64,000 bases of DNA, taken from NCBI GenBank assembly GCA_021810145.1, contig JAJZJL010000005.1:4667-68666 (forward strand). Direction: 5' to 3'. The notes below the pieces were generated by a model, which was given only the letters and a program-made list of their open reading frames with translations, was not told where the DNA came from and made no database searches. Of the stretch, positions 33,258 through 46,269 are shown one piece after another. Within the stretch, counting starts at the first letter, position 1. The number at the start of each line of letters is the position of its first letter. This DNA comes from Planctomycetota bacterium (GTDB lineage: Bacteria; Planctomycetota; Phycisphaerae; WQYP01). The translations under genes and the position numbers were made by a program.

Positions 33258-35750
33258 TCAGGCATCGCTGCTCAACGCATATTTCCGGGCCAGCAGCATG
33301 GCAGTCAGTGCGGTCAGAACTGCCAGGAGCCAGGATGTCTCGGCCAGGGGAAGCACTGTGCGGCGGCCGGGATGCCAACGCAGTGCGGACGGGGCATTAC
33401 CGGCAATAGCCGTTACACCGGGCCATGGGCATTGCTGAACGTGTCCGGTGGCCGGGAAATAGCAATTGGGCAGCCGCGGCGGACTGATGCGCCCGACGAC
33501 GGCCGGTTGTCTTTGCTTTCCTCGACCAGGACGTTGCCATACTGTTGCGGCAAAAGTGTCAACACGGTCAGGCAAGATGGTGCGATATTCGCCCGGTGCT
33601 ATTTGTGGCAGAGGAAATGTCAGGATTTTCCCATGCTGTGTTACCACCGTAAGGCCTAATTGACGCTGATTCAGAAATTGCCCATTACGAGTCGCCTGCA
33701 CGTCAAGCTGCCATCGACTGTTTCGACGAATGGCGGAAATATAAAAATGGTCTTCGCCCGCCGGGGCTTTGACCCTGTTGAGAAGCGTGCCGCGAAGGAC
33801 CGCGGCAGCGGCAGAGTTGTCCGAAAAGGAGATTGCCGCAACCCTGCCCAGACCGCGCCGCCAAATGGCCGCCAGACTGTGTTGACCACTGCGCGCCAGG
33901 AGCGTGATTCCGGCTTTGGGATATACGCGATCCCACCGCTTGGTCTGCCCCTGAAAATTCAGCGAACGGGCAGTCCAATGCATATTCCCCTCTTGCGTCT
34001 TTCCCTGAATGTCTCGTGCGACTGCGAATCGCAAAAAATGGCCCCATTGGCTGAAATGCTGCATCGGCAATTCGATGGAGCCGGTCTGCGCAAGCAGTTG
34101 TCTGGTTGCACGACTCAAGTGACCCGGTGCAATAACCGCCAGATGCACAGCTTGACGCAGCAGGATTTTTTTCCAGGCTGGTACGTTCAGGTGCGGAATT
34201 CGACCGTCCGTGACCAGAATAAGCGATGACCTTTTTGTCAGCAGGCGTTGCAGAGCAGGTAATGCCGAATCCGGACGCGTGGGGCCATTGGGAACAATTT
34301 TCGCCAGTAATTGCGGCAGCAGGGGACGTACGGTTTGTGCCTTACCGTCCACTAATTTCCGGGTGCTGCCGGAGAATAATAAAATGGTGATTTGATCATT
34401 GGGTTGAAGCAGTTGTGTCGCAGCGCAAAGAGCATGAGCGGCCAGTGCGAATCGCGTAACGCCCGAAGTTGTCGAATTGCCAAGTGATCCGCTGACATCC
34501 AACAGAAATATGAAGTGCCGCGGCTTGGGGTGTGGAGGCAGACTGGATAATGGCGAAAGTTGTTCCAGTAAGGATGCGGCACCGTGGGCTCCCCGGGGCA
34601 AGCCGTATCCGCCGGGGCCAAATGCGTTTTGTGTTCCGGTAATCAGCAGGCCGCCGCCCAGGTGTCGTACATAGTCGGATATTTTTTTCTCAGCGCCGAT
34701 CGGTAGATCACGAACCGCAATATCGTCCAGAACCAAAGCTTGAAAACGCCCAAGGGTACGCAGTGAACCGGGGAATTCCGCCGGTGATCTGTATTGCGCA
34801 ATCCAGTCTGGTATCTTGTGATCAGGCGTAGAGTGATGGTTTGTGATAATCAGTACGCGGGGCAAGCCCCACGCGGGAATTACGACACTGGCGTTGTTAT
34901 CGCCGGGCCAGAGATCATGGCTGCCAAGCGTAACGGTAATGGTGGAATTCCTGGAGATCATGCGGCGGGGCAGCGGCGGCAGCAGTACCATTTTTGTTCC
35001 GGAATGAACGAAACGCAGCGGCGTTTGGAACAGATTCTGCGCACCGGCATGTTCCACGAGCATGGTTGCGGCGGGACCCGTGGAACGCACGGTAAGCCGC
35101 AGTTGTGGCAGAGGGGGCGGCACCGTTCCAGACAACTGCTTCGGTGCCGCGACCGGGGCATACCCCAAGTGTAAATGCGTAATGCCGATATCGGTTTTGT
35201 CAGGCGGAATAACCGTTACGGCAATCGGCGCAGCGGGTGAATCGGTATGATCGGGTAACTTCCAGTTCAAAAGACCGGCAGTGAATATCCAGCAGGGGGT
35301 TGATCCGGTAAACGCCAGAAGATGTTTTATGTCAGCCGGTGCATGCGCTGCGGCGGCCAATGGGACATTCTGCGCGGTTAATTGCTCCAGGCTGGCGTTT
35401 GATGCAATAATATGCGGATGTGACGCGAAAGATACCAGTGTAATGGGAATATCACGCCCCAGATGCTTTTTCAGAAATCTCTGCAGCCAAAGCGGCTCAT
35501 GCCACGGCGCGGTAACAGTTGCGGGAGAATTATCCAATGCCACGATGATTCGTCTGGCTGATGTGGAGTAATGCATGACCGGTTCGCTGGCGGCCAAAAG
35601 AGCCAGCACCGCGGCAAGCGAGGGCAGAGCGATGGAATACATTTTCCAGGCAGCCGTGCGCGAGCCGGCGAGAAAAAGCGAAGCCGCCGCTACCGGTAGA
35701 ACAATAAGCAGTAACACAAGCAAGTCAGGATTGTGGAATTCCAGCATCAA
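33258..35750 (-). CDS. Membrane-anchored VWA-domain protein with glutamine-amidotransferase-like domain
   Basis: N- and C-terminal TMs; ALDNS and FLLDVSGS (MIDAS); YV...GGGLLITG..AFGPGGY; LVTDG; W..GLGRVAA. Confidence 0.82.
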   Translation of the reverse strand: MMLEFHNPDLLVLLLIVLPVAAASLFLAGSRTAAWKMYSIALPSLAAVLALLAASEPVMHYSTSARRIIVALDNSPATVTAPWHEPLWLQRFLKKHLGRDIPITLVSFASHPHIIASNASLEQLTAQNVPLAAAAHAPADIKHLLAFTGSTPCWIFTAGLLNWKLPDHTDSPAAPIAVTVIPPDKTDIGITHLHLGYAPVAAPKQLSGTVPPPLPQLRLTVRSTGPAATMLVEHAGAQNLFQTPLRFVHSGTKMVLLPPLPRRMISRNSTITVTLGSHDLWPGDNNASVVIPAWGLPRVLIITNHHSTPDHKIPDWIAQYRSPAEFPGSLRTLGRFQALVLDDIAVRDLPIGAEKKISDYVRHLGGGLLITGTQNAFGPGGYGLPRGAHGAASLLEQLSPLSSLPPHPKPRHFIFLLDVSGSLGNSTTSGVTRFALAAHALCAATQLLQPNDQITILLFSGSTRKLVDGKAQTVRPLLPQLLAKIVPNGPTRPDSALPALQRLLTKRSSLILVTDGRIPHLNVPAWKKILLRQAVHLAVIAPGHLSRATRQLLAQTGSIELPMQHFSQWGHFLRFAVARDIQGKTQEGNMHWTARSLNFQGQTKRWDRVYPKAGITLLARSGQHSLAAIWRRGLGRVAAISFSDNSAAAAVLRGTLLNRVKAPAGEDHFYISAIRRNSRWQLDVQATRNGQFLNQRQLGLTVVTQHGKILTFPLPQIAPGEYRTILPDRVDTFAATVWQRPGRGKQRQPAVVGRISPPRLPNCYFPATGHVQQCPWPGVTAIAGNAPSALRWHPGRRTVLPLAETSWLLAVLTALTAMLLARKYALSSDA

Positions 35751-42857: not shown

Positions 42858-44018
42858 TCAGATGCCAAGTTGTCGTGCGGCGGCTAGGAACTGCTCATAA
42901 TTTGTGTGCATTTCACGCATGGAGTCGCCCCCAAATTTTTCCACCATGGACCGGGCAATCTCAAATGCTATAACATTTTCCACAACGACCGCGGCGGCGG
43001 GAACCGCGCAGACATCACTGCGCTCATAATCCGCTTTGCCGGCCTGTTTATTCGTCAGATCCACACTCGGCATGGTCTTTTTCAGCAGCGTGCTGATGGG
43101 CTTCATTGCCGCCCGCACCACCACCGGTTGCCCGTTGGTCATGCCGCCTTCCAACCCGCCGGCGTTATTGGTGGGGCGGTTGAACCCGAGTTTGGGCGTA
43201 TCACGCAGGGCCGGGTCATATTCAATCGGGTCATGTACTTCCGAGCCGGGCAGTTCCGCGGTTCTAAACCCCATGCCAATTTCCACGCCTTTTATGGCTT
43301 GGATGCCCATGACTTCCGCGGCAATGCGGCTGTCGAGTTTCCAATCCCATTGTGCGCAACTGCCTAATCCGATGGGGCAGCCGATTACCCGTGTTTCAAC
43401 GATTCCGCCTAGCGTATCGCCCTGAATTTTTGCCGCCTTGATTTGCTCAATCATTGCTTCGGCCGCAATCGAATCCGGGCAATATACCTCGCTGGTTGCA
43501 ATCAGCCGGCGCAGCTCAGGTAACGGCGTGTCCGCGGCGACATGGGCCTTGGCCGATCCGATCTGCACCACAAAACCAACAACTTCAATGCCAAATTGCC
43601 GCAGAAGGCACCGCGCAATAGCCCCCACGGCCACGCGATTCGCGGTTTCCCGGGCGCTGGCGCGTTCCAGCGTCTCACGGCAATCCGTGCTCAGCCATTT
43701 GGTGGCCCCGGCCAAATCCGCATGACCGGGCCGCGGCTTTATCAAGGCCGGAGTATCATCCAATCGGCTGTCTTTATTGGGTATTTCCACCACCAGCGGG
43801 GAGCCAATGGTTTTCCCCCGCCTGAAACCCGTACGGAAATTCACCGCATCGGTTTCAATGCGCTGCCGGCCACCGCGGCCGTAGCCGCCCTGTCGTCGGC
43901 GTAATTCGCTATTGATGAAATCGACGTCCAAATCCAGTCCGGCGGGCAGCCCCTCAATAATGCTCACCAGAGCCGGACCGTGTGATTCACCTGCAGTACG
44001 ATAAGTCAATGTTGCCAT
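42858..44018 (-). CDS. aroC: Chorismate synthase
   Basis: TAGESHG, RRQGGYGRGGR, PRPGHAD, ERASARETA, NNAGGLEGGMTNG, MKPISTL, ERSDVC. Confidence 0.97.
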   Translation of the reverse strand: MATLTYRTAGESHGPALVSIIEGLPAGLDLDVDFINSELRRRQGGYGRGGRQRIETDAVNFRTGFRRGKTIGSPLVVEIPNKDSRLDDTPALIKPRPGHADLAGATKWLSTDCRETLERASARETANRVAVGAIARCLLRQFGIEVVGFVVQIGSAKAHVAADTPLPELRRLIATSEVYCPDSIAAEAMIEQIKAAKIQGDTLGGIVETRVIGCPIGLGSCAQWDWKLDSRIAAEVMGIQAIKGVEIGMGFRTAELPGSEVHDPIEYDPALRDTPKLGFNRPTNNAGGLEGGMTNGQPVVVRAAMKPISTLLKKTMPSVDLTNKQAGKADYERSDVCAVPAAAVVVENVIAFEIARSMVEKFGGDSMREMHTNYEQFLAAARQLGI

Positions 44019-44188
44019 AGCTGGGGAATTGTAACGTCTGTCCGCCCGGGCGGCTAATGAATCTGATGATTGTCGGCCCAGGAATCGTAGGCAATGAAGG
44101 CAAGAATAATCAGAAATCAATGATTTCCTGCAAAACAGAGCTGCATAAAATCGACAATCCCATTGATGGGCTCGATTGGCCTTTGCGG

Positions 44189-44387
44189 ATGGAGAATGTG
44201 GGGGAAAGTGGAGAAAAAGTAAAAAATATTTTTTTTACATCGATGCACCCAAAATTCTACTAATAGTGGTTCTCAGTGTTTTGAAGCTACTGGTTGATGT
44301 TATTATGGGGCGTGTGAATGTTGAATCCCATGATTGCCCCTAATGTGGAGCAAAAAGTATTGACTTTCCCACAAGTTTTTATATGCT
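44189..44387 (+). promoter_or_regulatory. mraZ promoter region with MraZ-box-like repeats
   Basis: ATGGAG/GTGGGG/GTGGAG at 44189, 44198, 44208 (9-10 bp period); further GTGG at 44266 and 44345; TTGACT (44360)-16 bp-TATGCT (44382) with a reverse GTGGG in the spacer. Confidence 0.65.
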
Positions 44388-44443
44388 CTAAGCCGATGAA
44401 GACAGGAGCAAGTTTTCTGTGTGCTTGAAGGTTGGAAGCTTGG

Positions 44444-44926
44444 ATGTATCTGGTTGGTTCATACGAGCACGTAATCGACGCCAAGAATCGCCTGGCGATT
44501 CCATCGGCGCATCGGCAGGAAGTGCCCGAATCACCATCCGGAAAGAAGCGATTCTATGCCCGGCCAGTTGAAATTCGTGAGCCCAGCGGTGGCAAGCGGC
44601 GTTTTGTGGAACTGATCCCCGAGCCGGTTTTTTTAGCTCTTGCGGAGAAGGAAAAAAAAGAAGACAGCCTGGAAATGCCGGTTGAAGAACAGGATCGTCA
44701 ATTAAGCCTGTTCGCAGGCGTCAAGATTCTGGAAATCGACGAGCAGGGCAGGGTTGTCATGCCCGATGATTTTCTGGATCGTCCGGATAAAAAGCCCAGC
44801 CGCTTTGCCATCAATATCCTGGGCCGTGATGTGGTACTTGCGGGCGTTGGTTCCCGCATACAGGTATGGAACGCGGAAGAATATCATCGCCGCTTTGATG
44901 GAGCCGGAAGGGTTCGGGCGGCGTAA
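44444..44926 (+). CDS. mraZ: Transcriptional regulator MraZ
   Basis: GSYEHVIDAKNRLAIP, EIDEQGRVVMP, VVLAGVGSRIQVW; upstream of rsmH. Confidence 0.92.
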   Translation: MYLVGSYEHVIDAKNRLAIPSAHRQEVPESPSGKKRFYARPVEIREPSGGKRRFVELIPEPVFLALAEKEKKEDSLEMPVEEQDRQLSLFAGVKILEIDEQGRVVMPDDFLDRPDKKPSRFAINILGRDVVLAGVGSRIQVWNAEEYHRRFDGAGRVRAA

Positions 44927-44935
44927 CAATACTCT

Positions 44936-45266
44936 CTGGAGCGCTTCTCGCGGTCAAGGATGACCGCTGAGACCAGGCTCCCCACGCAGGGATGCGTGTG
45001 TATGAAAGGCTTCTGCTGTCGCATGGATGCGACATAATAAGAAGCCGACACAGGGCGAATTGCGGTACGGACAGTTCATGGAAGAACTGTCCGTACCGCC
45101 GCCCCGAAACAATGGCCAGGTGGCTGAACAGGATGTTCGGTTCCCGCACGCCACCAACTCAAAGGACTGAGGCTTTGGCGCCGCTGGTCTTCAAGGATGA
45201 ACATGCTCGGGCCATGGAAGGCATGGCAGGGACACGTACCGGCCAGTCGTGTCCCTGTCTTTTTTT
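44936..45266 (+). ncRNA. Candidate CsrB/RsmZ-like multi-GGA-hairpin RNA
   Basis: Eight stem-loops with loops AAGGAT (44956), AGGGAT (44988), ATGGAT (45023), ATGGAA (45078), AGGAT (45130), AAGGAC (45162), AAGGAT (45193), ATGGAA (45214), then a terminator. The 5' end is unknown. Confidence 0.75.
45225..45266 (+). terminator. Intrinsic terminator between mraZ and rsmH
   Basis: 12-bp stem GGCAGGGACACG/CGTGTCCCTGTC (one G-U pair) followed by T7. Confidence 0.8.
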
Positions 45267-45351
45267 CGATTTTTCGGTCGGGCAATGGTCGTTCCACGCC
45301 CCGACTTGTGAGTTATCGGATTCAGGTCTTCGGCGTGAGCCGTTGCTGCAG

Positions 45352-46269
45352 ATGGATACGGCACAACATGGTCACGAACCTGTCCTGCTCAATGAAGCAA
45401 TGGAATTGCTGTCTCCGCAATCCGGCGACATCGTCCTTGATTGTACAACCGGCCGCGCGGGACACGCTCTGGCACTGGCTGGGAAAATTGGCGCAAATGG
45501 CACCCTGCTGTGTCTGGATGTTGATCCGGTTAATCTCACGTTTGCAAAGCAGCGACTGGATAACGCCGGACCAACCTGCCGCTTTTTTCAGGCTAATTTT
45601 GCGCAGCTCCCGGACGTACTGGATGCCGCTGAGATTCCGGCCGTCGATGTAATTTTGGCAGATCTCGGTGTTTCCACCAACCAGATGTTGTCAGAGCAAT
45701 ATGGGCTGAGTTTTACGCACGATGGTCCGCTGGATATGCGGTTGGATCCGCAGTTGGATCGCACGGCGGCTGATCTAGTCAATGACCTGCCGGAAAAAGA
45801 TCTGGCTGATCTGATTTTTCAGAACGCGGAAGAACGGTATTCGCGGCGAATTGCGCGAAACATTGTACAAGCTCGCAAACTGAAAAGAATTGCCACGACC
45901 GCCGAATTGGCAAGGCTTGTCCGTGCGTGCTTGCCACCGGCGCGATTCGGTCAAATTGATCCGGCCACTCGTACTTTCCAGGCGATACGCATGGAAGTGA
46001 ATCATGAACTCGACAACCTTGCAGAGTTGTTAAAAGTGGCACCCGGACGGCTTAAACCCGGAGGGCGAATCGGGATCATCAGTTTTCATTCCGGTGAAGA
46101 CCGACTGGTCAAACAGGAATTCAGACAATGGGCTGCTGATGGAAAATGTGACGTATTAACGTCCAAGCCCGTTGTGCCGACAGAATTTGAAATGACTTCC
46201 AATCCGAGGAGCCGAAGCGCTAAATTGCGGGTTGCTCGTTTGCGGATGGAAGAAAAACAGGCTTGGTGA
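45352..46269 (+). CDS. rsmH: 16S rRNA m4C1402 methyltransferase RsmH (MraW)
   Basis: HEPVLL, DCTTGRAGH, ADLGVS..Q, GPLDMRLD, PATRTFQAIR..VN.EL, ISFHSGEDRLVK, NPRSRSAKLR. Confidence 0.96.
   Translation: MDTAQHGHEPVLLNEAMELLSPQSGDIVLDCTTGRAGHALALAGKIGANGTLLCLDVDPVNLTFAKQRLDNAGPTCRFFQANFAQLPDVLDAAEIPAVDVILADLGVSTNQMLSEQYGLSFTHDGPLDMRLDPQLDRTAADLVNDLPEKDLADLIFQNAEERYSRRIARNIVQARKLKRIATTAELARLVRACLPPARFGQIDPATRTFQAIRMEVNHELDNLAELLKVAPGRLKPGGRIGIISFHSGEDRLVKQEFRQWAADGKCDVLTSKPVVPTEFEMTSNPRSRSAKLRVARLRMEEKQAW

Follow-up and report, generated by a model that had tools for sequence, protein, structure and literature searches.

What does the spacer between mraZ and rsmH encode in a Planctomycetota bacterium of the class Phycisphaerae? 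The spacer is part of a DNA stretch of 64,000 nt (the window; contig C124, JAJZJL010000005.1 of assembly GCA_021810145.1, positions 4667-68666), which belongs to a genome of 4.47 Mb in 200 contigs with a completeness of 93.9%. An initial annotation, made from the letters alone, had read the spacer as an array of hairpins with GGA in their loops and had likened it to CsrB and RsmZ, RNAs that titrate the protein CsrA. The array is real, non-coding, structured, under selection and strand-specific, and it matches the CsrA consensus site by site. With some reserve, we favor the view that it is a CsrA-titrating RNA, made as the 3' untranslated region (3' UTR) of mraZ or processed from it.

A structured hairpin array downstream of mraZ

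All eight GGA stem-loops listed in the annotation and the terminator behind them were found in the sequence; six of the stem-loops are solid and two, sites 7 and 8, are weak (Table 1). In 344 nt of the array region there are 11 GGA vs. 4 TCC triplets. For sites 7 and 8 the description stood only in part: the small hairpins are present, but the alignment-based fold prefers to pair site 7 with site 8 (helix 13), and neither version covaries. The terminator was missed by a consensus terminator scanner because its loop of 11 nt is larger than 8 nt.

The minimum free energy of the fold was lower than in shuffled controls (z = -5.75 with 100 shuffles), and GGA was located in six hairpin loops. The minus strand folds as well (z = -8.5), thus folding alone does not give the strand. 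A scan of both strands in segments of 350 nt for strict GGA hairpins, i.e. those with a stem of at least 5 bp and an A at position -1 or -2, yielded 2958 hairpins genome-wide or 0.33 per kb per strand. The array locus was the sole segment with 5 strict hairpins; the runners-up, at two loci, had 4. Likewise, it was the sole segment with 6 of the 2371 genomic sites for the CsrA consensus CANGGANG; the Poisson expectation for such segments is 2e-5 in the whole genome. When stems of 4 bp or more are admitted, a looser criterion, the array locus ranks only within the top seven. The spacer has no second genomic copy except for a short self-match of its 16-bp palindrome.

By blastn the spacer was present in eight of nine congeners at 77-93% identity. 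In the ninth, G004, which is 79% complete, rsmH was not detectable either, and the mraZ-rsmH locus is probably unassembled there. In an alignment of nine species all eight GGA triplets are invariant. RNAalifold predicted 115 pairs for this alignment, 21 of which show compensatory changes. The local helices comprise 97 pairs with 97.4% of the cells paired; 17 of these pairs are changed on both sides compared with 6.1 ± 1.7 in shuffles, none of which reached 17 in 500 trials. When the partners were slid by 1 to 3 columns only 1 to 4 pairs were changed on both sides. Compensatory changes occur in helices 1-6, 8 and 10 and in the terminator, while there are none in helices 7, 9, 11, 12 and 13. Invariant loops on covarying stems, as the annotation had foreseen for relatives, are therefore present, and selection acts on the RNA structure.

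Upstream of the real start of rsmH its frame stays open for 120 codons (44992-45351), and callers of open reading frames could add a false N-terminal extension to RsmH. A coding reading of this open frame from 44992 was rejected. The variable columns distribute as 52/48/45 over the codon phases, indels are 1 to 2 nt long, and six of the nine species have stops in the rsmH frame. Stops and frameshifts are found in the corresponding frame of relatives.

The annotation had asked for RNA from the locus. Contigs of metatranscriptome libraries, which are unstranded and may derive from DNA, cover the element at 44956-45241 and 45140-45355. The first is a 287-nt contig of a relative with 18 differences, which spans the array from the first loop into the terminator and has compensating differences in the 16-bp stem (45069/45071/45074 with 45087/45090/45092). 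The second, the 216-nt contig X1, has no differences from the window and bridges the terminator into the start of rsmH. mraZ and the array lie on different contigs, from which transcript ends cannot be read. In library X2 the array contig had a depth of 33.7 and the mraZ contig one of 4.66, values which cannot rank abundance. Library X4 gave no contig and X3 none over the array; uncovered parts carry no information. The contigs indicate presence in RNA libraries, nothing more.

Table 1. Features of the mraZ-rsmH locus and the fliW-csrA pair (window coordinates unless stated otherwise)
Feature	Position	Strand	Description	Nine-species alignment
Hairpin domain 1	44938-44981	+	outer helix and inner 7-bp stem 44950-44967; presents CAAGGAUG, loop AGGA	GGA invariant; helices 1-3 with 7 pairs changed on both sides
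Hairpin 2	44983-44998	+	6-bp stem; presents CAGGGAUG, loop GGGA	helix 4 100% paired; 1 compensatory pair
Hairpin domain 3	45008-45046	+	outer stem 45008-45014/45040-45046, inner 7-bp stem 45017-45034; presents CAUGGAUG, loop UGGA	helices 5 and 6 with 3 compensatory pairs
Hairpin domain 4	45053-45104	+	5-bp outer helix, perfect 16-bp stem 45062-45099; presents CAUGGAAG, hexaloop AUGGAA	helix 8 with 4 compensatory pairs
Hairpin 5	45122-45142	+	9-bp stem including G-U; presents ACAGGAUG, loop GGA	helix 10 100% paired; 1 compensatory pair
Hairpin domain 6	45146-45185	+	outer helix and 4-bp stem 45158-45171; presents AAGGAC	helices 11 and 12 100% paired; invariant or one-sided changes only
Site 7	45190-45201	+	weak; 4-bp stem, CAAGGAUG	GGA invariant
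Site 8	45211-45222	+	weak; 3-bp stem, CAUGGAAG	GGA invariant
Intrinsic terminator	45224-45266	+	14-pair stem 45224-45259, then U7 (T7) 45260-45266	helix 14 100% paired; 1 compensatory pair (C-G to U-A, 2 species); T-run of at least 5 kept in all nine
Promoter-like site	44360-44387	+	TTGACT, 16 nt, TATGCT; upstream of mraZ; consensus match only	
mraZ	44447-44926	+	159 aa from ATG 44447; Pfam MraZ PF02381, 46.1 bits vs. cut-off 23	
Post-terminator spacer up to rsmH start	45267-45351	+	holds a small hairpin	hairpin invariant
rsmH (16S rRNA m4C1402 methyltransferase family)	45352-46269	+	305 aa; Pfam Methyltransf_5 PF01795, 296 bits	
fliW-csrA pair	contig C13, L001 1375-2416	-		

Arrays in related genomes and their tie to mraZ

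Because blastn with the spacer was nearly empty outside the genus (two short, doubtful matches in other genera), the spacers of related genomes were extracted via their flanking genes. The family set comprised 45 genomes from 17 genera, and the N-terminal part of RsmH was found in 42 of the genomes. The same kind of array occurs across the family: 38 loci from 14 of the 17 genera carry 4 to 10 GGA hairpins on the plus strand. At 21 loci from eight other genera mraZ is located 440-570 nt upstream of rsmH, and each of these spacers has 4 to 9 GGA hairpins on the plus strand, with totals of 130 on the plus vs. 21 on the minus strand; one of them, L024, has four per strand. Eleven further loci were inspected. 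mraZ was not detected at L216, L217 and L223, and the eight loci with a detectable mraZ all carry 4 to 10 hairpins on the plus vs. 0 to 2 on the minus strand. Six of these eight come from four flagellated genera; thus genera with and without flagella both have arrays.

Stems from different genera are unrelated, yet their loops share the same context. In 58 hairpins from nine genera the loop consensus is CANGGAUG (C-A-N-GGA-U-G) with C in 58%, A in 68%, U in 51% and G in 65% of the hairpins, while the same positions in 4765 background GGA hairpins of the window's genome have frequencies of 20%, 15%, 33% and 29%. The loop consensus equals the published high-affinity consensus for CsrA/RsmE, in agreement with the assignment in the annotation. 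CsrA ligands obtained by in-vitro selection (SELEX) read RUACARGGAUGU with the GGA in a hexaloop closed by AC/GU (reviewed in PMC7652899), and the CsrA consensus is written CANGGANG in PMC4894983.

A wider set was assembled from the best 80 RsmH relatives in contigs of one genome per species; it partly overlaps the family set. mraZ was located upstream at 44 of these loci with spacers of 403-1162 nt. They contain 269 GGA hairpins on the plus vs. 54 on the minus strand, and 130 vs. 2 when only strict hairpins are counted. The consensus CANGGANG is found at least once at 43 and at least twice at 32 of the 44 loci, and its density is 4.54 per kb on the plus vs. 0.07 per kb on the minus strand. 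As a control, rsmH and downstream sequence had 0.61 and 0.15 CANGGANG per kb.

The plus strand is indicated by four lines of evidence. Several conserved pairs are G-U (e.g. alignment columns 288-314, 323-355 and 110-119) and would be A-C on the other strand. The run of T follows the terminator stem on the plus strand only, with none on the minus strand. In the 44 Phycisphaerae-like spacers CANGGANG occurs 125 times in sense vs. twice in antisense orientation, and in the 21 family spacers CA(N)GGANG was counted 99 times on the plus vs. twice on the minus strand.

The array goes with mraZ, not with rsmH. In a metagenome-assembled genome of Singulisphaera (L128) mraZ and rsmH are unlinked, and still there are seven GGA hairpins within 200 nt after the mraZ stop. 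In G182 (L142) six hairpins lie behind mraZ, and the next gene, at a distance of ~740 nt, encodes a redoxin and does not belong to the division and cell wall (dcw) cluster. Array look-alikes are found in at least one Isosphaeraceae genome (Singulisphaera) and in one other family. As a control, 36 rsmH loci without a detectable upstream mraZ were at background with 3.2 vs. 2.5 hairpins per kb and 13 vs. 8 CANGGANG in the 500 nt that precede rsmH.

In the window the distance downstream from the mraZ stop is ~12 nt to the first helix of the array and 32 nt to the first loop GGA. In relatives, when measured from the true mraZ stop, the first GGA hairpin is located 9-37 nt downstream at 11 of 13 loci. 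Because it is so near to the stop there is no room for a promoter in between. A sigma-70 consensus scan of 44000-45600 gave no promoter-like site within the spacer; the sole match is the one upstream of mraZ (1 found vs. 1.2 expected in shuffles). The geometry favors co-transcription of the array with mraZ, although the RNA may also start at a promoter inside mraZ.

Two other leads were discarded. A strict triple-site pattern, used as a detector in the 45 family genomes, matched the spacer in seven of the nine congeners and in G019 only and was too strict; elsewhere its matches lay in repeat elements and coding DNA, and the totals were 41 matches vs. 5 for the reversed control pattern. A second candidate array on contig C30 is not equivalent to the spacer, since the repeat families to which it belongs also recur, in tandem or dispersed, in other genomes. 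A 48-nt unit is repeated there in tandem three and a half times on the minus strand (~35190-35370; L224 ~1190-1370), in an intergenic position downstream of an alpha/beta-hydrolase gene; every unit contains two GGA hairpins, one of them a perfect CAUGGAUG hairpin. Units of a similar kind, likewise in tandem, are present at several loci of G047, G049, G015 and G010, which represent other genera of the family. Such units may be repeat elements or further arrays of CsrA sites. Next to them (L224 ~1050-1195) lies a dispersed repeat of ~135 nt with more than 25 other copies of 83-94% identity on many contigs of the window's genome (G000); it is also present in the congeners G002 and G008.

CsrA, FliW and the described Csr/Rsm RNAs

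The genome has two copies of csrA above the Pfam cut-off with 93 and 65.5 bits, in line with the annotation, which had counted on CsrA homologues in planctomycetes. CsrA-2 is encoded on contig C145 and CsrA-1 on contig C13, the latter directly downstream of an open reading frame with a FliW domain (41.6 bits vs. a cut-off of 25). CsrA-1 aligns over its whole core to solved CsrA structures, and the best match was chain 5dmb_D of a Geobacillus CsrA-FliW complex. csrA was found in 43 of the 45 family genomes and in all 28 high-quality ones, usually as the same two paralogues.

A profile search of the window's genome, which is incomplete, did not find the N- and C-terminal domains of flagellin or FlhA. 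The flagellin N domain was detected in 12 of the 45 family genomes and eight of the 17 genera, and in none of the nine genomes of the window's genus. Because neither flagellin nor FlhA was found in the genus, the partner switch between FliW and flagellin may have no partner there. Thus the genus, as far as its incomplete genomes tell, seems to have retained fliW-csrA while lacking a flagellum. In flagellated genera of the family csrA is located beside a flagellin gene, e.g. on contig C5 of G022.

CsrA is common in Planctomycetota (PMC13443453), and as far as the literature searched shows planctomycete CsrA is unstudied. We compared the occurrence of csrA and arrays in an even sample of 121 genomes of the phylum, 114 with MraZ and 51 with CsrA, in which, among the matches listed, 80 mraZ loci were retrieved and 79 of these scored. 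Left out were G078 (contig ends), G139, G172 and G119 (several mraZ copies) and G143 (genus already twice in the sample). Strongly asymmetric arrays, in which the plus strand exceeded the minus strand by at least 4 hairpins, were seen in 12 of 36 csrA-positive vs. 4 of 43 csrA-negative genomes. The hairpin measure gave a naive one-sided Mann-Whitney p = 0.03, for which kin are not independent. A gap of at least 230 nt between mraZ and rsmH was present in 21 of 27 csrA-positive vs. 15 of 41 csrA-negative genomes. Since csrA is present in each of the eight genomes sampled from the window's class, the test has little power where the array lives. Apparent arrays in distant families (G120, G169, G116, G089) were set aside since they are without CANGGANG character. 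Spacers of 290-430 nt between mraZ and rsmH without a GGA array occur in many planctomycetes (L137 in G094, L165 in G115, L163 in G180, L159 in G076). Seven genomes of family f16 of the phylum sample (G067, G098, G118, G134, G151, G167, G182) have 9 to 16 csrA matches each, and GGA hairpins also follow mraZ in G182 and G151.

The label 'CsrB/RsmZ-like' of the annotation holds as an analogy and fails as homology. A cmscan of 44000-46000 against Rfam gave nothing at gathering score and nine matches at E up to 10. CsrB, CsrC, RsmY, RsmZ and the mraW motif, the families named in the annotation, were unmatched even at this level. The best sub-threshold match was RsmW (RF02809) with 30 bits vs. a gathering score of 52 and E = 0.012, while RsmV reached 9.6 vs. 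100. Two GGA hairpins at 45012-45103 align to the ends of the model of the Pseudomonas RsmW and the central part of the model is missing; hairpin domain 3 falls within this match. It is a match of generic GGA hairpins, not homology. RsmW has been reported to derive from the 3' end of the transcript of its upstream gene, an origin that would parallel a 3' UTR origin of the array. Fourteen further loci, i.e. 13 mraZ/rsmH loci of relatives and the repeat locus L224, had no Rfam match at gathering scores. The mraW RNA motif is also a structured element beside rsmH/mraW, which had no match in 44000-46000; it is known from Actinobacteria and is a single hairpin-type motif, not a GGA array.

Three traits of the functional class of Csr/Rsm RNAs, namely multiple consensus GGA loops, an intrinsic terminator at the 3' end and csrA in the genome, are found here. 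In its many loop GGAs of the CANGGANG type, its 3' terminator and its cognate csrA the array is like CsrB/CsrC and RsmX/RsmY/RsmZ (Rfam clan CL00106), of which CsrB of E. coli has 22 GGA sequences (PMC7652899). Unlike the gammaproteobacterial sponges it belongs to another phylum, has no detectable homology to them, much longer stems and fliW in the genome, and unlike the free-standing CsrB/RsmZ genes with their own signal-controlled promoters (BarA-UvrY/GacS-GacA type) it starts right behind mraZ with no promoter-like site in the spacer. By this comparison the array is analogous to CsrB/RsmZ, not homologous, and it is in no described family.

Two more systems are similar in part. The flaA/hag leaders of Campylobacter jejuni and Bacillus subtilis are likewise CsrA sites borne by an mRNA, in species where CsrA is paired with FliW, and the flaA leader, with two GGA hexaloops similar to CANGGANG, is able to titrate CsrA (PMC4894983). 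Yet these are two sites in the 5' leader of flagellin, whereas the array has six to eight sites 3' of the gene of a cell-division regulator in a genome in which no flagellin or FlhA was found. UpsM of the Rhodobacteraceae is a small RNA (sRNA) from the dcw leader with a Rho-independent terminator, where read-through feeds the downstream genes (PMC5089854). Like the array it is a non-coding RNA in the mraZ/dcw transcription unit ending at a terminator. In contrast to the array its position is upstream of mraZ, it has links to Hfq and RNase E, it is proposed to act by base pairing and it comes from another phylum; the abstract describing it does not speak of a GGA array.

Multi-site sRNA antagonists of CsrA are established in Gammaproteobacteria, and the known antagonist elsewhere is the protein FliW. 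A search of the openly accessible literature found no description of a CsrA-antagonist RNA in planctomycetes or beside mraZ. To this extent the annotation was right in knowing of no example from this lineage.

Candidate function and flanking features

That CsrA is bound and titrated and that the array is co-transcribed with mraZ is what we infer from the sequences, as would be any tie to MraZ autoregulation, which the annotation had suggested. In the mechanism that we favor, a structured non-coding RNA of ~330 nt (44936-45266, plus strand) would be co-transcribed with mraZ and would form its 3' UTR or a piece processed out of this UTR. The RNA would end at its own intrinsic terminator, and read-through of the terminator would give rsmH. 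It would offer CsrA six strong sites and two weak ones of the type A-N-GGA in hairpin loops, with CANGGAUG as the consensus. Because the CsrA dimer has two RNA-binding faces, one RNA could hold several dimers. In this way it would draw CsrA away from target mRNAs, like CsrB/RsmZ of Gammaproteobacteria, and its output would follow the mraZ promoter.

Several points weigh against titration. Sites 7 and 8 are weak and without covariation. Most SELEX ligands of CsrA have four or fewer contiguous pairs (PMC7652899), and several stems of the array (7-16 bp) are far more stable than those ligands. No Rfam homology to any Csr/Rsm RNA was detected, and the contigs from RNA libraries are unstranded, possibly DNA and do not rank abundance. 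Across the phylum the consensus-motif measure shows no significant link to csrA (p = 0.17; Fisher p = 1.0), and there are many csrA-positive lineages with a long spacer but no array, e.g. G094 and G115. CsrA-1 adjoins fliW, the gene of a protein antagonist, and the literature reports an anti-correlation of FliW and Csr-type sRNAs. According to a review (PMC7652899), fliW is anti-correlated with BarA-UvrY, and a joint action of FliW and sRNAs in any one species is undetermined. Gammaproteobacteria lack fliW. Finally, a role in cis on rsmH could coexist with titration.

A purely cis-acting element has, in our judgment, a limited chance of being the right explanation. As a leader or 3' UTR the array would be a CsrA target without an effect in trans, and CsrA bound to it would control termination at 45224-45266 and hence rsmH and the genes downstream, or else the stability of the mraZ mRNA. 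The array is located between mraZ and rsmH in every family locus examined and is separated from rsmH by the terminator. The RNA-library contig identical to the window bridges this terminator, so read-through molecules may exist, and sites 7 and 8, which are able to pair with each other, stand directly before it. UpsM sets a precedent for a terminator-bearing dcw leader RNA (PMC5089854). On the other hand, arrays follow mraZ without an adjacent rsmH in L128 and L142, the latter with the redoxin gene, and the 36 rsmH loci without an upstream mraZ are at background in hairpins and in CANGGANG. Furthermore, six to ten high-consensus sites exceed the needs of known CsrA-controlled leaders.

It is improbable that the structured RNA binds something else, e.g. 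another RNA-binding protein or the ribosome via Shine-Dalgarno-like GGA, or that the fold itself is functional and the likeness to CsrA sites convergent. GGA-rich loops do resemble Shine-Dalgarno sequences, the stems are unusually long for CsrA ligands, and the arrays do not track csrA significantly across the phylum. But conservation falls on precisely the positions of the CsrA consensus (C at -3, A at -2, U at +3 and G at +4), bases that occur there at only 15-33% in background hairpins, csrA is present in every high-quality family genome, and we know of no other protein that recognizes repeated CANGGANG hexaloops. A reading without any function, be it random clustering of palindromes, a repeat element or wrongly annotated coding DNA, for which one might cite the open rsmH frame back to 44992 and the dispersed and tandem repeats with similar hairpins elsewhere in the family, is contradicted by the data and has next to no chance, since the locus is a unique genome-wide maximum without a second copy beyond the 16-bp palindrome, covaries above shuffled and slid controls, lacks codon periodicity, has stops in relatives and is conserved as an array at 38 family loci.

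We thus return to titration of CsrA as the favored function. More tentatively, and as a possibility that we would not yet call probable, a Planctomycetota lineage consisting of the window's Phycisphaerae family and neighboring families may have independently evolved a CsrA sponge at the 3' end of mraZ. The mraZ promoter would then set the level of free CsrA, and the sponge would work alongside FliW, including in genera where no flagellin was found. If true, a sponge wired to mraZ in genomes that keep FliW would be the first example in which both FliW and a sponge RNA act on CsrA within one cell. What the sequences suggest is a sponge-type RNA with textbook CsrA-type sites, conserved in a planctomycete lineage that has fliW-csrA and a second csrA. 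Should CsrA bind, RNA-based control of CsrA would extend to a distant phylum as an independent invention, CsrA would be tied to mraZ, whose role is poorly understood, and there would be a testable handle on post-transcriptional regulation in Planctomycetota.

The borders of the spacer in the annotation needed correction. rsmH starts with ATG 45352, and the spacer extends from 44927 to 45351 (425 nt). For mraZ an alternative start is possible at the upstream TTG 44432. The next gene after rsmH encodes a LysM protein. Between the terminator and rsmH there is a small hairpin at 45331-45342 with a 4-bp stem and a GUGA-type loop, which is invariant in all nine congeners.

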